Assembly (NCBI GenBank): GCA_000165345.1
Contig: CM000430.1
Span: 96,001-160,000 of the forward strand
Direction of reading: 5' to 3'
DNA: 64,000 nt
Under the pieces are notes generated by a model, which was not told where the DNA came from, searched no databases, and saw only the letters and a list, made by a program, of their open reading frames with translations. Numbering within the stretch: the first letter of the stretch is position 1; each line of letters opens with the position of its first letter. Below are positions 1,965-16,981 of the stretch, piece by piece. A program made the translations under genes and the position numbers.

Positions 1965-4900
1965 TTGNNAGGGTNAGCGAGTTNCGTTATTCGTTTNNNN
2001 NNNNNNNNNNNNNNNNNNNNNNNNNNNNNNNNNNNNNNNNNNNNNNNNNNNNNNNNNNNNNNNNNNNNNNNNNNNNNNNNNNNNNNNNNNNNNNNNATTT
2101 CATTCCAAAAATTATATCAATGGAAATTATATATTAATCATAAATATCTTCAAATTCAACAATTTCTCAATTCTAATATATGTAGAAATATTATTATAGA
2201 ATTAAGAAATTTATCAAAAGAAACAAAATTTACTATACAAATTTCTGATTTATTATATCGTAATTTTATTATGAGAAGAATATTAAATGGAATAATATAT
2301 TGGAAATTTCAAAGTCAATATCAAAAAGAATGTAGAAATAAATATCAATTACTTGAAAATTATATTAATAAAAAATTAATTAATAAAATATTTATTAATT
2401 GGAAAAAAGAATGTCAAGATTATATTATTTATTATAAATTTATTAAAAGTATACAATTACCAATCAAAAAAAGAGTTTTTATTATTTTTAAAGGTAATTA
2501 TATATTCAATAAATATAATTATAATTGTATTCGAATATTTTTTATATCATGGAATTCTTTAACAAATAAAAAAAGAATATTAAAAGAAAAATGTCAAAAT
2601 TTCTATCAATTTTATATTTTAAAAAGATTAATAGAAAGAGTATTTAAACAATGGAGAATAAAATATTATCAGAAATTGAATATATATCAATTTTATGATA
2701 ATATTATTATTAAAAAACCTATGAAAACAATTTTTTATTATTGGAATAATAAAACAATTCAAAGATTAAAAAATGAAAAAGAATTAACAACCAAAATAAT
2801 TAATAGAGAAAAAAAGGATTATTTAAGAATGATGATAATTATTTATAAAATGAATAAAATTTATTATCAAATCAATTTTGGAATTATTAAAAGAATATTT
2901 AATATATGGAAGAAATTATATATGATTGAAAAATTTCATAGAATGAAATTATTAAAACAATATATAATATATTGGAGACATTATTCAATAAAAAGAATAA
3001 TATATAGAGATAAGATTAATATATTTATACAAGAAAGATCAAAAAGATTAATAGAAGAATATTATATAAGAATGATTATATTATATAGAAAAAGAATACA
3101 AATAAAAGAAAAATATGAATATATAAGAAATAGAATAAGAAATAGAAATTTATTAAAAATTATTCAAATATGGAAACAAAGATTTAATAATAGAATAAAG
3201 AAAAAGAATGATTATCAATATTTATTAATAATACATAATAATTATATATTAAAGATGTCAATTCGAATTTGGAAGGAGAGAATGTTAAAAGAGGAAAGAT
3301 ATAGATTAATAATCAATCAAGAAGAAATGAAAAGAATATATAATTTAAAGAGTAGAATATTAAATTATTGGAGAAAAATTTGGAAACCACATCATTATAT
3401 AAAAGTATCAAATGAATTAATAAAGATATTGAATAGAATAATAATACATAATTCATTTCATAAATTATTAAGAATAACATTTTATTCATATAAATATAAT
3501 AAAGATGAGGATAAGAATTGGATTAATATGATAAGAATGAATAATAATATAATAATAAATAAAAGAATTGGATATAGTTATTATATGGAATGTAGATGTA
3601 CTAGTAATGAATTAATAAGAGGATGTTTATTATTAAAAGATAATAATTTATGGATAATGAATATATTATCAAAAATACAAGAAATAAGAAATAATACAAT
3701 ATATGATATGTTATTAAGAATGAGAGAATATATAAGAATAAGAAAGAATTATGAGAAAGGTATAAATGATTTGGAGAAGAATTTAAGAAGAATAATATTA
3801 TCAAGAGTTTGGATAGAGATGATTAATAATATAGAAAGAATATGGATGATAGGAAGATTAATAATAATAATAAGAAATAGAAGAGAGGAGAGAATAAAGA
3901 GACAAGTATTAGTAAGATGGGTGAATAAATATAATGAGAATTATAGGAATAAATGTATAATAGAATATATGAGAAGAATATATGGTAATACAATAAAGAT
4001 TAAATGTTATTTAATTTGGTCAATAAAATTTGAGATAATAAAAAAGAAGAAGAGATTAAAAGAAAGATATGAGAAATATTTAAGAGTTTATATAATAGAA
4101 TATACAATAAGAAGAATGAATGAATATTATTTATATAATAAATGGTTAATATGGTGTAAGAAAGCTTATGATAGAATAGAATGGGTACATGATTTTAGAT
4201 TAAAATCGATATTATTTATAAATTGGAGAAGATATTCAAAAAAGCAGAAAATATTAAGGGATGAATTATATATATTATATAATAAAGTAAAGATAAGAAA
4301 GAAAGGATATATATTAATAGAATGGGTGAATAGGATAAGAATATTATTAAGAATGAGAAATGATGCTGAGAATTATTATTTGAATAATATAATATATAGA
4401 AGAAGATTTAAAGATTGTTTTAATATATGGAGAGGATTATCATTAAGATTAAGAAATCAAAAGAAGAAGATAATGGATTATTTGGAGAATAAGAATAAGA
4501 ATTTGAAGATTACATGTTTTAAACTTTGGAGATTTTTTATTTATTATAGAAAGACAAGGAATTCAAGATTTGAGAAGATAACAAATATAATAAGATTGAA
4601 TCATTTAAATATGATGGTTTATAGAATATTTTATTCATGGAAATTAAAGATGATAGAATTAAGATCTTTAAAGAATTCAATATTTTCATTTTGGAATTCT
4701 GGTATGGGTTTGGAGATGGAGGAGAGTGGATTGGGAGTGGAGGATGGTGAGAGGGGAGGAAGAAGAGGGAGAGGAGTTGGAGGAGAAGGAAGGGTTGGAG
4801 GAAGAGGAAGGGGAGGGATGGGAGGAGAAATGGAAAGGGGAGGGATGGGAGGAGAAATGGAAAGGGGAGAAATGGTAAGAGGAGAAATGGTAAGAGGAGA

Positions 4901-8866: not shown

Positions 8867-10003
8867 TTACTTTGATAATGTATTTGTTACAATATCTTCA
8901 ATTGTACTAAATACCTGCTTAATCATTTTACCTCCATTTTGATTACTCTTTTTATTATCATTTTTTTTATTATTTTCATCAACATCATCCTCCTTTTCTA
9001 AATCCTTTACTTCATCATTATTATTATTAGACTTCTTCTTTAATCCATCAAAAACATCATTAACCTTCTCTTCAACTCTTTCTAATAAACCCTTCTTTGC
9101 TAATACTCTCAAATTGGATGTATTATTATAATATACAATTTCTGGTGTTTTGATTGGTGATGCTGTATCATTATACCTTTTACCATCACTACTTATACTT
9201 GTTTCATTATATAATGGATTATTCTTAATATTTTTATCACGATTATTATCTTCATTTTCATCATCATCTTCTTCTTCATCCCTATCTTGTACTATAATTC
9301 TCTCATTACCACTCAAACCAGCTCTATTAAAACCTGTTAATGTTGGAAACCTTTGTAAATAATCACTTTCCCTATTCAATAAATTATTAACAGGATTGTT
9401 TCCTGATGAAGAAGTTTGATTTCTTTGCATTAAAGATTCATTAGAATTCTGTAAATCATTATTTTGATTTCCATTAGATAATATTCCATCTTGTAAATCA
9501 TTAATAAATCCAGGTGTCATATTTTCCATAGGAATCATTACATCCATCTTTCTTTCATTTGATTCAGATTCATTACCTAAATATCTAAAATATGGTCCAG
9601 GTAATGGAGCATATGGTAATGGTGAAACATATCCAACTGGTCGTGTAAATACTCCTCCTGGTCTAGAGGTTGTTCTTGTGTATGAATATGAATAATTATA
9701 TGGATATCCTGGCACTCCTGCATATGGATATTGATATGAATATGTATATGGATATTGATATGAATAAGTATATGAATATGGGTATTGATATTGATATGGA
9801 TATGAGTAATACACAGGTTGTTCTACAAAATATGGACGATCCACAAATACTGTTTGATCTCCTACATAGCCTCCTCTTCTATGTCCAAGTGATCTTACTT
9901 CAGTAGTAGAATTCTTTTCTTGTTTTTGAGACTTAACTACATTTCCCAAGCATGCCAATATTAATATTATAACTGTTGTATTTTTTAATGTAAACTTGAC
10001 CAT
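8867..10003 (-). CDS. Secreted tyrosine-rich repeat protein (YPYSYTYSYQ-type repeats), followed by Asn/Asp/Glu-rich tail
   Basis: ATG start at 10003. Signal-peptide-like N-terminus (TTVIILILACLGNVVKS). Residues ~60-110 are almost entirely Y/P/S/T/Q (YYSYPYQYQYPYSYTYSYQYPYTYSYQYPYAGVPGYPYNYSYSY). Confidence 0.5.
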   Translation of the reverse strand: MVKFTLKNTTVIILILACLGNVVKSQKQEKNSTTEVRSLGHRRGGYVGDQTVFVDRPYFVEQPVYYSYPYQYQYPYSYTYSYQYPYTYSYQYPYAGVPGYPYNYSYSYTRTTSRPGGVFTRPVGYVSPLPYAPLPGPYFRYLGNESESNERKMDVMIPMENMTPGFINDLQDGILSNGNQNNDLQNSNESLMQRNQTSSSGNNPVNNLLNRESDYLQRFPTLTGFNRAGLSGNERIIVQDRDEEEDDDENEDNNRDKNIKNNPLYNETSISSDGKRYNDTASPIKTPEIVYYNNTSNLRVLAKKGLLERVEEKVNDVFDGLKKKSNNNNDEVKDLEKEDDVDENNKKNDNKKSNQNGGKMIKQVFSTIEDIVTNTLSK

Positions 10004-10488: not shown

Positions 10489-10514
10489 ATTGCATGCATG
10501 CAATTTTACACGTG
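10489..10514. promoter_or_regulatory. 16-nt perfect palindrome ATTGCATGCATGCAAT plus CACGTG box, upstream of the Tyr-rich protein gene
   Basis: Read from the sequence. It lies ~490 nt upstream of the ATG at 10003 on the minus strand. Confidence 0.4.
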
Positions 10515-10721: not shown

Positions 10722-12149
10722 TTAACTAAATTTAATAGTAGAAAACTCTTTCTCAAAGCTATCAAATCTTTTTATAGCTTTTGATCTATTCAAATTTACA
10801 ATATCCATTGGATTATCATTTGAATATTCAACAAATCCACTCAAACCAGTAATATTCTCAAAATCTGTAAACTTTAAAACAGTATCTAAAAATTCACTCT
10901 CTGATTTAAGTAATTCATTTATAAAAGAAGGTATTGAATATCCAACTTTTGAACCTAATTTGCTTATTAATGGTATAATGTTTTCCTCACAACCTATTAA
11001 TTTATTTATAAAATCTTCAGGATCATTGATTATTCTCATCATCTGAAAATGATGTAAAATCTTATCTTTTTTTTCTTTTGATGCTAACTTTATATTAAAT
11101 ACTACACTTTCCTCTAATATATTGACTAAGTCATACCAGAAATCTTGCTCTTCCATCGGATCATTAAAAACCAATACTATTACTGTATTTTCATCAAAAT
11201 TTAATCCATTCTTTCCATCAATATTTTGAATAAATTTCATGATTTCCCTGCTTGGACGACCTACTTCCATATATTCAATATTATTTATCTTTATCATTAT
11301 ATTATATATCTCAATATGTTTCAAATATACTTGATGGGATATTATCATCTTATATTTAACATTTGCAATACTATTATTCTCTTTTTTAAGTCCTGCATTT
11401 ATTCTCATTTTTTCTTCTTCCCTTTTTTCTTTCTCTCTTTTGCTATTATATATATATTTTTTATAACTCACTATTCTTCCTTCCTCATAACAATCAAATA
11501 ACCAATCTAAATTTACTATTGTTTGGATATTATTTTTTTCTTTAACTTTATCAATAATTTCTCCTTCAAATTCTTCATTATTACAAATAAGTGCCAACTT
11601 TGTAACACTTGCTTTTAGTGGAACTTTGACCAAGTCATTATCATCATTACTTTCATTTTCATTTTTATTGTCATCATCAAATATTACTCTTGCTCCCATT
11701 TGCGTTTCTACAAATGAAACTAAAATACCAATATCATCCTTCTTACGTATATATTTTGGGCTCTTTTCTCTATTATTAAATCCTCCTATTGTTTTACTAT
11801 AACCTATAATATAAATCTGAAACCCTTTCAAAATATTATATTTAAAATTGCCATTTGGTCTAAAAAAAGGATGCCATTCTAATGAATAATTCCATTCGTC
11901 ATTCACTGATAACCATATCCAAAATGGAGTTCTTAATTTCTGATAATCTATACTTGTATGCCTATATCTATATCCTTTTGAATAATTACATATTAAATAA
12001 TCAACATCATCATCCATAATCTCACTATTTAATTCCAAAACTGTTCCCCCATTATTCTCAATATATTTTTTCCTTATCAGATTATTTTCATCATTTTCTT
12101 CAAATCCACTCAGTAGAAACCTCTTATTATTCCATATTTCTGAATTCAT
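10722..12149 (-). CDS. BRCT-domain-containing protein (N-terminal BRCT fold), function unknown
   Basis: ATG start at 12149. The N-terminus KRFLLSGFEENDENNLIRKKYIENNGGTV…VDYLICNYSKGYRY…IWLSVNDEW has BRCT-like spacing (F-x-SGF … GG … hL(I/V)C … W). The remainder has no motif I recognise. Confidence 0.45.
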   Translation of the reverse strand: MNSEIWNNKRFLLSGFEENDENNLIRKKYIENNGGTVLELNSEIMDDDVDYLICNYSKGYRYRHTSIDYQKLRTPFWIWLSVNDEWNYSLEWHPFFRPNGNFKYNILKGFQIYIIGYSKTIGGFNNREKSPKYIRKKDDIGILVSFVETQMGARVIFDDDNKNENESNDDNDLVKVPLKASVTKLALICNNEEFEGEIIDKVKEKNNIQTIVNLDWLFDCYEEGRIVSYKKYIYNSKREKEKREEEKMRINAGLKKENNSIANVKYKMIISHQVYLKHIEIYNIMIKINNIEYMEVGRPSREIMKFIQNIDGKNGLNFDENTVIVLVFNDPMEEQDFWYDLVNILEESVVFNIKLASKEKKDKILHHFQMMRIINDPEDFINKLIGCEENIIPLISKLGSKVGYSIPSFINELLKSESEFLDTVLKFTDFENITGLSGFVEYSNDNPMDIVNLNRSKAIKRFDSFEKEFSTIKFS

Positions 12150-12450
12150 TTTATTATTAATATAAAAATTATTTGTTATTACTCACGCAATAAACAAAAT
12201 AAAAACTTTTTATATCTGAAATATAATCATTTATTATCTGAATATAAATTCGCTAATTTAAATGCATACAATACTGCAAAAAAAATTGAACTCATTTACT
12301 TTCTTATTTATTATTAGAACTTTAAATACAATAAATGTACGTAATTCTTGATTTTTTATTCTCAAACTTATAATATTCTTGGCAGTAAACTAATAGTTAT
12401 TTTTATTATTATATTGTTATTTCCCAATATTACCAATTACATTATTTTTA

Positions 12451-12484
12451 TTTGGGCGCCAATGATTTGTGTGTGTGGGGCGAG
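12451..12484. promoter_or_regulatory. E2F-like TTTGGGCGCCAATG plus GT-rich/GGGGCG box upstream of the BRCT gene
   Basis: Sequence motif. It lies ~300 nt upstream of the ATG at 12149 on the minus strand, and immediately 3' of the HOP2 stop codon. Confidence 0.4.
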
Positions 12485-12515
12485 TTATTATTAATAATGG
12501 TTATATAATGATTAC

Positions 12516-13879
12516 TTAAACCATCTCAATTCCTATTTCTTCCATCAAATCTGAAGCCTAAAAATTAATTACATATTTATAATGATTTTATTCAAGTAAA
12601 ATTATTGATCATAATCCACTTGAATTAAAAACAACTTACCTTCCTTTCCATAGATTCTGAAAAAGTGTCCACTGCAGATTTACATGCAGATTTGAGCTTC
12701 TTTAACTTTGCCTGAAATTCAATAAATGATAAATTTTAAAATTAATATTAAAAAAATAACTTACCTGCTTTTTTAACAAGCTATTCTTTAACTCTTTTAA
12801 TTCATTAACTGGAATAATCTCACAATCGTCATCTAACATTTTTTCCTTTCTTGAAATCTCCTCTTTAAGTGATTTATTCTTTAAAATGCAAATAAAAATA
12901 ATTAAAGATAACATTTTAGAAAAGAATTAATGCGTTATAATATTTTATATATCAAATTTTTAAATTTATATTATAAACTTACCTTAAGATTTTCTTGCAT
13001 TATTTTCTCTTCTAATTCGTCAATAGTTAATGGAACACTTATATTTCTTGTTTCTTGTTTAAGTTGTTTAAGCCTCACTTCCAAATCATTCAATTCTGAC
13101 TCGCAAACAGAAATACTTTTATCCAAAGCTTCCATTTCATCCTTGTTTAATTCTTTACAGTCACTTTGGTCTACTAAATATACTTTTTGTTTTCCATACT
13201 CCTTGCATATAAACTTCCCCTCGACAGCAAGACGTTCCATTTCATCAGTTACTTGCTTCTTTGAGTATACATTATGCAAATTATCAACCACATTTTGTAC
13301 TGAATATGGACGATTCTGCTCTTTCATATAGTTAAATATTGCCTCTCCTGCATCTCCTGCTGCTGATCCTCCCCCTGAATTTGCAACATTCCTCTTTGTC
13401 AAATTCTTTGGAGCAGACAGTTTCTTTTTCTTTGCCGGCTTTGTACTTTTATCTTCATCATCAGATTCTAATTCATCTTCCACTGAACTTTCTTTAGATG
13501 ATTGTTTTTTTGGTTTTGCAGGTTTTGAGTTAATAGACTCCCCCCCTTTTTTCTTTGTTGTACTTTTTTTGCCTTTTTTACCCTTTTCAAATTCTTCTTC
13601 TTCTAAATCCAAGTCATTTTCATCATCTTCATCATCACTATCTTCGTCTCCTTCATCTATAAAATCCATTTCCTCATCAAAATCACTCTCAAAATCATCC
13701 AATTCATCATCTTCATCATCAAAATCTGTGTATTTTACAACTTTTCTAGAATTTCTTGATGGTCTAACTTGAGATTTACTTTCCATATTATCATCTTCCA
13801 TTTTACTCTGTTGTGTTTCATCCAATCCTGTTCCTTCTTCTTCCATATTATTACCTTCTTCTTTGCTTCTTTTTACCAT
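12516..13879 (-). CDS. HOP2: HOP2/TBPIP meiotic homologous-pairing protein, four exons: complement(join(12516..12557,12640..12711,12765..12878,12983..13879))
   Basis: Exon 1 (the track ORF 12971..13879) ends …QENLK directly before GTAAGT. The winged-helix block EAIFNYMKEQNRPYSVQNVVDNLHNVYSKKQVTDEMERLAVEGKFICKEYGKQKVYLVDQ matches the human HOP2 N-terminus (ILRYLQEQNRPYSAQDVFGNLQ…GKIKEKTYGKQKIYFADQ). Three further exons are each bounded by GTAAGT donors and Py-rich…AG acceptors, with introns of 104, 53 and 82 nt. Exon 2 (K-rich coiled coil) was checked base by base and agrees with the track ORF 12702..12914 translation. The last exon ends ASDLMEEIGIEMV*, matching the HOP2 C-terminus (…FFEEVGIETDED). 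There is a long acidic/basic N-terminal extension before the winged helix. Confidence 0.65.
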
Positions 13880-14328
13880 TTTTTCTTGAATTTTTTTATT
13901 TTAATAAACAACTTATTATCTTAATTTAAATTTACTTTTAAATTTATAAATTCATTCATTCACCCTCATTTTAAATTTTTTTTATAATTTATTCCAACTT
14001 TATTTCATATTATTTATTAACTAATCTGCACTGATGCCTCTTACGTGTTAATTTTTGCCCCTCTTGCAATTCCACATGCAAATTTGCATGCAGGTAAAAT
14101 AAAATCATATACCGGTAATTTTGCGGATATATGGATAAATAAATTTAAAAATATTTTGGTAAAATTAAATGAATTATTAAACTGAAAAAACCTTATTAAA
14201 AATTTATAATAAAAGCTAAACTAGAAGAAATAATCAAATCTAAATATATTAAACAAATAGAATGCTTTTTATATAGATTAGTTTCACTCTTTAAGAAACT
14301 GTCTATAAAGAAATTCAATTGTTCATAC

Positions 14329-15255
14329 TTAAGATTTAACTTTGTTTTTACCAGAAACATTTAATCCAATAATAGTCTTGAAAGAATCATAAACCCACCA
14401 TTGCATCCCTGTTAATGTACCAATCATAATAATTCTTGTGCCCAAACCTGCTGTACACAAGTTCTTTATACCGATTTCTCTAGTCATAGATAATACGTTA
14501 ATTCTTTTGGAGCTATTATATGCAGCTTTTCCAAGCTGAGAAATTATAGTATCAGCTGGGTGTGATACAATAGCGCATATAATTCCAGATAAATAGCCTG
14601 ATAAAAATGTTATACCAAGCCTTGATTTCTTACTATATGATTCTTTAGGTTTAGTAAAGACTTTATCATAAAACATTTGATTAATTCTCTCAAAAAAATA
14701 GAATTTTGCCATTGTATAAGGAATTTGACGATACCATAAAGGCTTAATACTTCCAAAAGGAAATTTTGTTTCTGATCTATATTTATACATATTACTAGCT
14801 GATTTTAGAAAAGAGTTTGGTAATAAATCTGGCCTTGTACAAGTTTGCATTTTTATTTTTATCATTTCCATTGGACATAATGCTATGTCTGCAAAAAATT
14901 CTGCTGTTGCTGATGCTCCAAGCCAAATCAATCCTTTATGAGATTCTTTATTTGTTGTTAGAATCTTGCTAGAATATAAATCTTTAAAGTATTCATACAA
15001 GCCATATTTTAACGCACCTTGTGCTGAATAACCAATTAAAGTTGGTGCCCATCCTAATCTCAGTGCCTTTACTCCTTCAAATCTTATTATTTTAGATAAA
15101 GTTGGAACTAAGCTCCTAAATTTATCTGGGTAAACTTGTATTCTGCATTTAGCTACATCTATTGGAACAATTGCGGTGTGGGTTAGACCACAACTTAATG
15201 CTCCACCTAATGCACAGTTTAAGTAATAGTTTACATTTCTTTTCTTTTCTTTCAT
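14329..15255 (-). CDS. Mitochondrial carrier family protein, phosphate-carrier (PiC/Mir1)-like
   Basis: The track ORF starts at a GTG (15264); the first ATG is 15255..15253 (MKEKKRNVNYYLNCALGGALSCGLTHTAIVPIDVAKCRIQV, compare yeast Mir1 …[28 protein letters not shown]). Three Px[DE]xx[KR] carrier signatures are present (PIDVAKCRIQ, PMEMIKIKMQ, PADTIISQLGK). There are six TM-like helices. Confidence 0.7.
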   Translation of the reverse strand: MKEKKRNVNYYLNCALGGALSCGLTHTAIVPIDVAKCRIQVYPDKFRSLVPTLSKIIRFEGVKALRLGWAPTLIGYSAQGALKYGLYEYFKDLYSSKILTTNKESHKGLIWLGASATAEFFADIALCPMEMIKIKMQTCTRPDLLPNSFLKSASNMYKYRSETKFPFGSIKPLWYRQIPYTMAKFYFFERINQMFYDKVFTKPKESYSKKSRLGITFLSGYLSGIICAIVSHPADTIISQLGKAAYNSSKRINVLSMTREIGIKNLCTAGLGTRIIMIGTLTGMQWWVYDSFKTIIGLNVSGKNKVKS

Positions 15256-16298: not shown

Positions 16299-16981
16299 AT
16301 GGTAAGTTATCTACAGATCAAAATTTTCTAAAAAAATGATTAACGCTTTTCCATTAAAATATTTAGTCTATTATGACTTATAATGGTGGTGCCATTTTGG
16401 CAATGAAGGGAAAAGAGTGTGTTGCATTTGCAACAGATATGAGACTTGGATCTAATGGATACAGAACTATAAGTACTGATTTTGATAAAGTTATTAGACC
16501 AAGCTCAAAAACATTGATGGGATTTTCAGGTTTAGCTACTGATATTCACACTCTAACAAACTTAATCAAATTTAAAACAAACTTGTATCATTTAAGGGAA
16601 GAAAGAGAAATTGGTGTTAAAGCACTTAGCCATATGACAGCTTCAATATTATATAGTAAACGTTTCAGTCCATATTTTGTGGAACCAATTGTAGCAGGTC
16701 TTGATAATAATAATGTGCCTTTTATTGCTGGGTATGATCTTATTGGATGCTTATCAGTATGTAGCGAATTTGCAATTTCCGGAACCGCTGATAATCAACT
16801 TTTTGGTATCTGTGAATCATACTATAGACCTGATTTAGAACCTGATGAACTTATGGAAATCGTCTCACAATGTATGCTTTCCGGTATAGATAGAGATGCA
16901 TTTTCTGGATGGGGTTGCAAAGTTTATCTACTTACTCCTGAAAAGCTCGTCACCAAAACTTTAAAATCAAGAATGGATTAA
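16299..16981 (+). CDS. PSMB3: Proteasome subunit beta type-3, two exons: join(16299..16301,16367..16981), 65-nt intron
   Basis: The track ORF (16373..16981) begins MTYNGGAILAMKGKECVAFATD… The open frame continues 6 nt upstream to S-I, preceded by TTTAG. An ATG at 16299 is immediately followed by GTAAGTT. Splicing ATG|GTAAGT…ATTTAG|TCT ATT ATG ACT gives MSIMTYNGGAILAMKGKECVAF, which matches the human PSMB3 N-terminus [22 protein letters not shown]. The C-terminus (…TKTLKSRMD) also matches (…TRTLKARMD). Confidence 0.8.

Follow-up and report, generated by a model that had tools for sequence, protein, structure and literature searches.

The question raised by this locus is which protein it encodes, because a long open reading frame (ORF) of 302 aa can be read directly from the DNA of its minus strand, whereas an earlier note made from the raw sequence proposed a spliced gene of four exons for the meiotic protein HOP2. 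The locus lies at positions 12516 to 13879 of a 64,000-nt stretch of the Cryptosporidium parvum genome (contig CM000430.1 of assembly GCA_000165345.1, positions 96,001 to 160,000; hereafter the window), and all coordinates refer to that stretch. The best explanation overall, in which our confidence is high, is that the locus is the C. parvum HOP2 orthologue, encoded on the minus strand and interrupted by three phase-0 GT-AG introns that are removed to give a protein of 374 aa. Gene anatomy, homology, conservation of the structure and the state of the annotation were worked out here, RNA sequencing (RNA-seq) support and expression in females are taken from the literature, and biochemical activity we infer. 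The gene and its parts are listed below, where LZ1, LZ2 and LZ3 denote the three leucine zippers.

12516..13879, minus strand: HOP2/TBPIP gene cgd2_510, start to stop codon; four exons; 374 aa by spliced translation
12983..13879, minus strand: exon 1; 897 nt; aa 1-299; charged extension, winged helix, LZ1 and first half of LZ2
12879..12982, minus strand: intron 1; 104 nt; phase 0; GTAAGT...AAAG; 12% GC
12765..12878, minus strand: exon 2; 114 nt; aa 300-337; second half of LZ2, LZ2-LZ3 junction and start of LZ3
12712..12764, minus strand: intron 2; 53 nt; phase 0; GTAAGT...TCAG; 11% GC
12640..12711, minus strand: exon 3; 72 nt; aa 338-361; rest of LZ3
12558..12639, minus strand: intron 3; 82 nt; phase 0; GTAAGT...TTAG; 17% GC
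12516..12557, minus strand: exon 4; 42 nt; aa 362-374 and the stop codon TAA; capping helix ASDLMEEIGIEMV with the conserved C-terminal EEIGIE
13172..13354, minus strand: TBPIP/Hop2 winged-helix DNA-binding domain; aa 176-236; by PF07106, 2mh2 and Foldseek
13355..13879, minus strand: N-terminal extension; aa 1-175; part of exon 1; 31% D+E and 18% K+R

Identity and exon structure of cgd2_510

The window is the reverse complement of part of chromosome 2 of C. parvum IOWA-ATCC (GCA_015245375.1, CP044421.1), with 100% identity across the 21,364 nt that we compared. The gene, which encodes HOP2/TBPIP (PSMC3IP), has the CryptoDB identifier cgd2_510 and the name 'Homologous-pairing protein 2' (PMC6877471 supplement, Tandel 2019). 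An identical 374-aa protein has been deposited in GenBank four times (QOY43184.1, WKS76344.1, WRK30837.1 and KAL5369842.1) as either 'Homologous-pairing protein 2' or 'putative coiled coil protein', and a gene span of 1364 nt, equal to the span proposed from the raw sequence, is annotated in all four C. parvum assemblies. Set against QOY43184.1 on CP044421.1, the locus shows no difference in protein, gene span or compared DNA. The IOWA-ATCC annotation that contains the 374-aa model comprised 1926 gene-model updates and states RNA-seq support for all introns (PMC8744675). The four-exon model is thus already known, and its derivation from raw sequence, in which the coordinates, the intron lengths of 104, 53 and 82 nt and the product of 374 aa were all reproduced, recovers the public GenBank model; because an identical protein record and the same span are in GenBank, the proposal is a correct re-derivation of a known structure, and the finding is sound but ordinary. 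The further statement that the introns are missed by ORF calling applies to raw ORFs and to the 2004 Iowa II model (EAK88878.1/XP_626288.1, 'hypothetical protein'), which is the 302-aa ORF, but not to current C. parvum annotations, which include the introns.

Removal of the three introns joins a coding sequence of 1125 nt that specifies 374 aa and a stop codon with no internal stops. All three introns begin with GTAAGT, end in AG and have short AT-rich bodies, as is typical of U2-type GT-AG introns; their GC content is 11-17%, compared with 27-38% in the exons and about 27% around the locus in this AT-rich window. Also in keeping with U2-type introns, their removal restores one frame that continues the HOP2 homology, whereas their retention truncates the protein: introns 1 and 3 contain stop codons in all three frames, intron 2 shifts the frame, and retention of any single intron leaves a product of 302, 357 or 365 aa. 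The 302-aa ORF (13879..12971) had been described as ending exactly at AAG|GTAAGT; in fact it reads three further codons (VSL) past the junction into intron 1 and terminates at a TAA at 12973-12971. The GTAAGT hexamer occurs in the window at the level expected by chance, with 23 sites on both strands against an expectation of 21.7 +/- 4.6, while a cluster of three copies in 350 nt of a single strand should arise by chance only about 0.045 times per window. Enrichment of GTAAGT as evidence of splicing was therefore set aside, the local clustering alone being unusual, and the count was given no weight. Judged from the sequence, it is frame restoration together with homology, and not the number of hexamers, that decides for four exons.

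The core of the spliced product matches the Pfam model PF07106 over residues 176-236, scoring 86.2 bits where the cut-off is 22.8 (E 1.4e-24) and covering positions 1-61 of the 62 in the profile, and the identification of a HOP2/TBPIP winged helix in the earlier note was correct. The winged helix of mouse Hop2 (2mh2) was matched in a search of PDB sequences (E 7.8e-12), and Foldseek gave a match of the winged helix with a TM score of 0.89 and a root-mean-square deviation of 1.0 A over 63 columns. Chains of Giardia Hop2 (4y66), which ranked first, and 2mh2 were the top Foldseek matches in the PDB. Using phmmer, we found that Giardia Hop2 (4y66_B) aligns to residues 176-372 of the spliced product, including CKSAVDTFSESMERKASDLMEEIGIE against CREVIDTLSEGMGVKPSAFMDQLGLE; because the alignment spans these residues, it crosses all three splice junctions. 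In an AlphaFold model of residues 167-374 (pLDDT 82.8), the winged helix is followed by three long helices and a short terminal helix, with predicted leucine-zipper helices at approximately residues 246-281, 286-317 and 323-356 and a capping helix at 362-369. These helices, together with the alignment to 4y66_B throughout, provide the three zippers that characterize the HOP2 family.

In the Hop2-Mnd1 crystal structure from Giardia lamblia (PDB 4y66; Kang et al. 2015, PMC4402518), Hop2 has the same order of parts, namely winged helix, LZ1, LZ2, LZ3 and C-terminal capping helix, and its alignment to the Cryptosporidium protein includes ...ESM..K.S.LMEEIGIE; the two proteins differ in that they share only about 20% identity and that the charged N-terminal extension of 175 aa is present in the Cryptosporidium protein only. 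With respect to this architecture, intron 1 interrupts LZ2 at its middle, intron 2 lies inside LZ3 and intron 3 separates LZ3 from the capping helix, so that exon 4 essentially equals the capping helix. In a separate test of exons 2-4, we searched 1.84 billion cluster representatives with residues 170-299 of exon 1 only, built a profile from the tails downstream of the matched region in 107 homologues and compared it with a second profile, made from the peptides that exons 2-4 encode in eight Cryptosporidium species. The exon 2-4 profile matched the 107 independent tails with a probability of 98.4% (hhalign; E 8.7e-15, 65 columns). The motif EE(I/L)G(I/L)E is aligned with plant and Giardia Hop2, as expected of LZ3 with its capping helix. 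Both the alignment to 4y66_B, which runs through residue 372, and the hhalign comparison thus bear out the proposal that the downstream exons restore the zipper region and the EEIGIE motif.

In light of this homology, we consider the chance that the single intronless 302-aa ORF is the real product, a C-terminally truncated HOP2, to be close to nil. Although the ORF is long and uninterrupted, was the deposited model for years and would accord with the absence of introns from about 90% of C. parvum genes (PMC4637869), it stops three codons into a consensus GTAAGT intron and is devoid of LZ3 and the capping helix, parts carried by all HOP2 homologues, while exactly these parts are encoded in frame just 3' of it in eight species. 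The 302-aa model has, moreover, been superseded by newer evidence-based annotations.

A number of observations weigh against the spliced 374-aa HOP2 and have to be set beside the evidence above. The introns had been described as flanked by GTAAGT and by a pyrimidine tract followed by AG; all three do run from GTAAGT to AG, but the acceptor of intron 1 is AAAG, a weaker type with an A at -3 where a pyrimidine is expected. Usage of the junctions is supported indirectly, by the annotators' RNA-seq statement and by comparative evidence. The AlphaFold monomer has a low predicted TM score (0.36), and the relative arrangement of its helices is therefore not informative. PF18517 (LZ3wCH) is matched below its gathering score of 26.1, with 16.4 bits in C. 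parvum and 21.4 bits in C. serpentis (hmmscan), the sub-threshold match being correctly placed over profile positions 3-49 of 55. Interaction of the Cryptosporidium protein with Mnd1 and Dmc1 is a prediction from homologues, and several public orthologue models disagree with the four-exon structure.

Conservation, setting and origin of the introns

To place the introns in an evolutionary context, the gene was compared in eight species, namely C. parvum, C. hominis, chipmunk genotype I, C. felis, C. bovis, C. ryanae, C. serpentis and C. muris. Three phase-0 introns are located at identical positions in all eight. Exon 2 is 114 nt and exon 3 is 72 nt in every species, with no indels, and exon 4 is 42-45 nt, having one extra codon in C. 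serpentis and C. muris only; within exons 2-4, third codon positions vary most. The introns, by comparison, range from 53 to 104 nt with lengths free of any multiple-of-three constraint: intron 1 spans 56-104 nt, with the short versions of 56-57 nt in C. serpentis and C. muris, intron 2 spans 53-69 nt, and intron 3 is 70-104 nt with the exon 4 motif in frame after each version. Relative to C. parvum, the introns of all species except C. hominis require 5-48 gap columns and have a much lower identity than the exons, and all eight differences between C. parvum and C. hominis within the 467 nt comprising exons 2-4 and the introns are intronic. Donors in the intestinal species are GTAAGT, GTGAGT or GTAGGT, and those in the gastric species are weaker (GTAATA, GTAATT, GTAAAA and GTAGAA). 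The shared positions indicate that the three HOP2 introns are at least as old as the genus.

This comparison also bears on a structure of three exons in which intron 3 is kept and the protein of 365 aa ends in ...MERKVSCF. Such a structure is used by two curated annotations of sister species, C. hominis 30976 (364 aa), along with two more C. hominis models, and C. tyzzeri UGA55 (365 aa), all of which retain intron 3 and end in ...MERKVGCF. In C. hominis and chipmunk genotype I, intron 3 starts with a weaker donor, GTAGGT, and the ...VGCF ending of the C. tyzzeri model implies the same donor there. We nevertheless regard this structure as very improbable for C. parvum, because exon 4 encodes the most conserved C-terminal motif of HOP2, (S/C)D(L/I)xEEIGIE, in frame in all eight species and aligns to Giardia and plant Hop2, and because intron 3 is spliced in the C. 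parvum annotations and in a C. hominis model (KAL3129306.1, 373 aa). A precedent pointing the same way comes from yeast, where, according to PMC4402518, a wrong Hop2 C-terminus cripples activity.

With the four-exon structure preferred, its introns can be compared with those of the rest of the genome. Introns of C. parvum have a median length of 61 nt and a mean of 82 nt (n = 213; PMC2483917, Table 2), or a mean of 99 nt in a later re-annotation (PMC4637869), and are far longer than the introns of about 25 nt in Trichomonas vaginalis (PMC2483917). The suggestion that the 53-nt intron is near the lower limit for splicing does not agree with this median or with the 53-69 nt of the orthologous introns. 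As 84% of Cryptosporidium introns begin with GTAAGT (PMC2483917), three identical donors of this kind are ordinary. Introns are present in about 10.8% of C. parvum genes, in which the number of exons ranges from 2 to 10 and averages 2.6 (PMC4637869). Counting HOP2 itself, eight complete genes lie within 10 kb in either direction: six have no intron, another has one of 65 nt, and HOP2 has three. Describing the locus as intron-dense for this genome is fair, although four exons are within the known range (PMC4637869).

All three HOP2 introns are confined to the last 20% of the coding sequence, 3' of the 897-nt exon 1. Intron-poor genomes are usually described as having a 5' bias of introns, and the placement in HOP2 is the opposite.

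We also considered whether these introns are ancestral. The annotated HOP2 model of Plasmodium berghei has one intron, located within its N-terminal extension, and none in the coiled coil; the three Cryptosporidium introns are therefore not shared with that model. In the annotated model of the plant Acacia pycnantha, introns follow aa 9, 18, 107, 131 and 194, and two of them, although equal in phase to Cryptosporidium introns 1 and 3, are displaced from these by 4-5 alignment columns. The introns were provisionally treated as not shared with Acacia, and comparison with these two HOP2 models yielded no evidence for shared ancestral introns.

N-terminal extension and neighbouring features

The charged, low-complexity extension of 175 aa, presumably disordered, gave no match at E <= 1 in a Pfam search. 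On sequence grounds it is real coding sequence within Cryptosporidium: the start M(V/G)KR is conserved in all eight species, as are the motifs RPSRxxRKxxxY (aa 39-50), the acidic-aromatic FESDF and, after a lysine run, APKNLTKRNV (aa 155-164). These motifs may serve in nuclear localisation or as linear motifs for binding chromatin or a partner. They are essentially absent from the extensions of homologues outside the genus, where a search with regular expressions returned a few loose matches.

An extension of this kind had been called unusual for HOP2, which is accurate relative to animal, plant and fungal proteins but not relative to apicomplexans such as Plasmodium. About 20 aa precede the winged helix in the median homologue, yet in 41 of the 150 nearest cluster representatives this stretch exceeds 100 aa, and it is often similarly charged. 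Extended homologues include P. berghei TBPIP (677-709 aa), and the winged helix begins near residue 475 in P. berghei and near residue 410 in P. malariae. Plasmodium TBPIP/HOP2 (P. berghei SCM19611.1, 677 aa; P. malariae SBT71971.1, 611 aa) thus resembles the Cryptosporidium protein in having a long charged extension and differs from it in the length of that extension (400-475 aa) and in lacking the Cryptosporidium motifs. A table of cgd and PBANKA identifiers places cgd2_510 and PBANKA_0605100 in one orthologue group (PMC6877471 supplement). As a separate observation, positions 3001-4089 of a sequence in the Logan assembly ERR14847230 encode an intronless HOP2 homologue of 362 aa with 33% identity, a complete C-terminal module and its own K-rich extension of about 165 aa, and such extensions thus recur beyond Cryptosporidium and Plasmodium.

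Upstream of HOP2 and elsewhere in the window, the following sequence elements were recorded.

14075..14090, no strand assigned: palindrome CATGCAAATTTGCATG; perfect; 16 nt; about 200 nt upstream of the HOP2 start codon
6601, 6646, 10491, 10495, 14085, 17486, 23789, 24871, 33292, 44696, 48137 and 63298: sites of the octamer TGCATGCA

The palindrome is unique in the window, did not occur in any of 100 shuffles and is composed of paired TGCATG(CA) motifs of the AP2 type. In all eight Cryptosporidium species, two CATGCA/TGCATG motifs, in most cases with a spacing of about 10 nt, are present between 86 and 345 nt upstream of HOP2, and we regard the palindrome as a candidate conserved AP2-type promoter element of the female-expressed HOP2 gene.

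The octamer occurs 12 times in the window against 0.48 expected, and is reportedly discussed in papers on apicomplexan AP2 factors and on upstream motifs of Cryptosporidium. An overlapping pair of octamers at 10491-10502 lies upstream of a 378-aa gene on the minus strand (8867-10003), which by gene numbering should be cgd2_490, a gene strongly up-regulated in females (Tandel 2019 table, PMC6877471).

Three further observations concern the surroundings of the gene. One of them is at the start (16299-16366, plus strand) of the proteasome beta-subunit gene cgd2_530, for which the IOWA-ATCC annotation gives a span of 683 nt and a product of 205 aa, figures that fit an exon 1 consisting of the ATG only (16299-16301) directly followed by a GTAAGT...AG intron of 65 nt; another C. 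parvum assembly is annotated with an intronless product of 202 aa, for which the following ATG in the same frame, at about 16374, may be the start. In the AT-rich spacer between the HOP2 stop codon and a 475-aa gene (12149..10722), a GC-rich element, TTGGCGCC, is found on the minus strand at 12455-12462, and we take it to resemble an E2F motif. The element is kept at the same place in C. hominis, while in C. felis and chipmunk genotype I its sequence is TGGCGCC; it probably belongs to the promoter of the downstream 475-aa gene, for whose C. felis orthologue a weak match to BRCT was recorded. Within the locus itself, an ORF of 133 aa on the opposite strand (12930-13331) was dismissed as mechanical, its frame being antisense to conserved coding sequence of HOP2, and an Rfam search of both strands of 11800-14600 gave no match to a structured or known RNA at E <= 1.

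Expression, predicted function and orthologue models

Meiotic genes reported to show preferential expression in females include HOP2 (PMC6877471). For cgd2_510, log2 counts per million amount to 0.96, a background level, in asexual stages but reach 6.20 in females in vitro and 8.07 in vivo (PMC6877471 supplement), so that females exceed asexual stages by about 5.2 log2 units and by more still in vivo (PMC6877471). The background level in asexual stages and the strong expression in females agree with the description in the earlier note of a meiotic gene expressed in sexual stages (PMC6877471 supplement).

In Giardia, Hop2-Mnd1 forms a parallel coiled coil of three leucine zippers in which paired winged helices at one end bind double-stranded DNA, and the LZ3wCH at the other end is necessary and sufficient for binding to the Dmc1 nucleofilament (PMC4402518). 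Mnd1 (Table 2), Dmc1, Spo11 and Hop1 have been reported in Cryptosporidium, Mnd1 in C. parvum and C. hominis (PMC2488364). By homology to Giardia, mouse and yeast Hop2, the Cryptosporidium protein would pair with Mnd1 through its zippers, the paired winged helices would bind duplex DNA, and LZ3 with the capping helix would dock on and stabilise the Dmc1/Rad51 filament; such stabilisation would promote strand invasion into the homologue after fertilisation. Because exons 2-4 encode the filament-binding module, the unspliced 302-aa ORF would lack this module: it would keep the DNA-binding domain and LZ1 but lose the Dmc1-binding part and much of the Mnd1 interface, and this form is predicted to be non-functional.

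The location of the introns raises the possibility of stage-regulated splicing, in which intron retention would keep HOP2 non-functional outside the female and zygote and both forms would be meaningful. Budding and fission yeasts regulate several meiotic genes by splicing. In cgd2_510, every retention event gives a premature stop, all three introns lie within the part encoding the Dmc1-binding module, their positions are conserved genus-wide, and three introns in one meiotic gene are unusual where about 10% of genes have any (PMC4637869). However, transcription alone explains the stage specificity, with background expression in asexual stages and an increase of about 5 log2 units in females; the donors have the strongest consensus; and only three putative alternatively spliced genes have been reported genome-wide, none of whose identifiers we mapped to cgd2_510 (PMC8744675). 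We therefore think stage-regulated splicing unlikely. Similarly doubtful, and with no positive support, is the broader speculation that the introns constitute a splicing safety gate and/or that the extension motifs form an apicomplexan-specific module for nuclear or chromatin targeting.

The public orthologue models were compared with the conserved four-exon structure. The four-exon template is matched by the C. serpentis model (313 aa) and by the newer C. hominis KAL3129306.1 (373 aa). Judged against it, HOP2 models in seven other Cryptosporidium species or genotypes are truncated or mis-spliced at the 3' end, namely those of C. hominis (301 and 364 aa, the newer model of 373 aa being correct), C. 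tyzzeri, C. felis, C. muris, C. bovis, C. ryanae and chipmunk genotype I. Beyond the models that retain intron 3 in C. hominis and C. tyzzeri, C. hominis CUV04406.1 (301 aa) consists of exon 1 only; in the C. felis model (363 aa), the acceptor of intron 1 is shifted 15 nt downstream and intron 3 is retained; in C. muris CMU_009890 (318 aa), it is the donor of intron 3 that is shifted, by 18 nt downstream; and the models of C. bovis, C. ryanae and chipmunk genotype I are read-through products of exon 1 only.

For C. parvum itself the practical value of the four-exon structure is nil, because the correct model is already public. The faulty models of the other species lose part or all of the LZ3 and capping-helix module that contacts Dmc1, and users of the corresponding proteomes would be misled in surveys of the meiotic toolkit, in orthology work and in structural modelling; the conserved template, in which an exon 1 of variable length is followed by exons of 114, 72 and 42-45 nt, corrects all of them. 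A similar case is budding-yeast HOP2, for which, according to Chan et al. 2014 as cited in PMC4402518, a wrong C-terminal segment in the accepted ORF masked Hop2-Mnd1 activity until a third exon was found. There, too, a gene model in an intron-poor genome missed a 3' exon, affecting the part needed for stimulation of Dmc1, although by that account the yeast gene has two introns rather than three and its case is biochemical, whereas the case made here is one of sequence only. The faulty Cryptosporidium models thus echo yeast HOP2, in which an overlooked third exon hid the activity of the protein.

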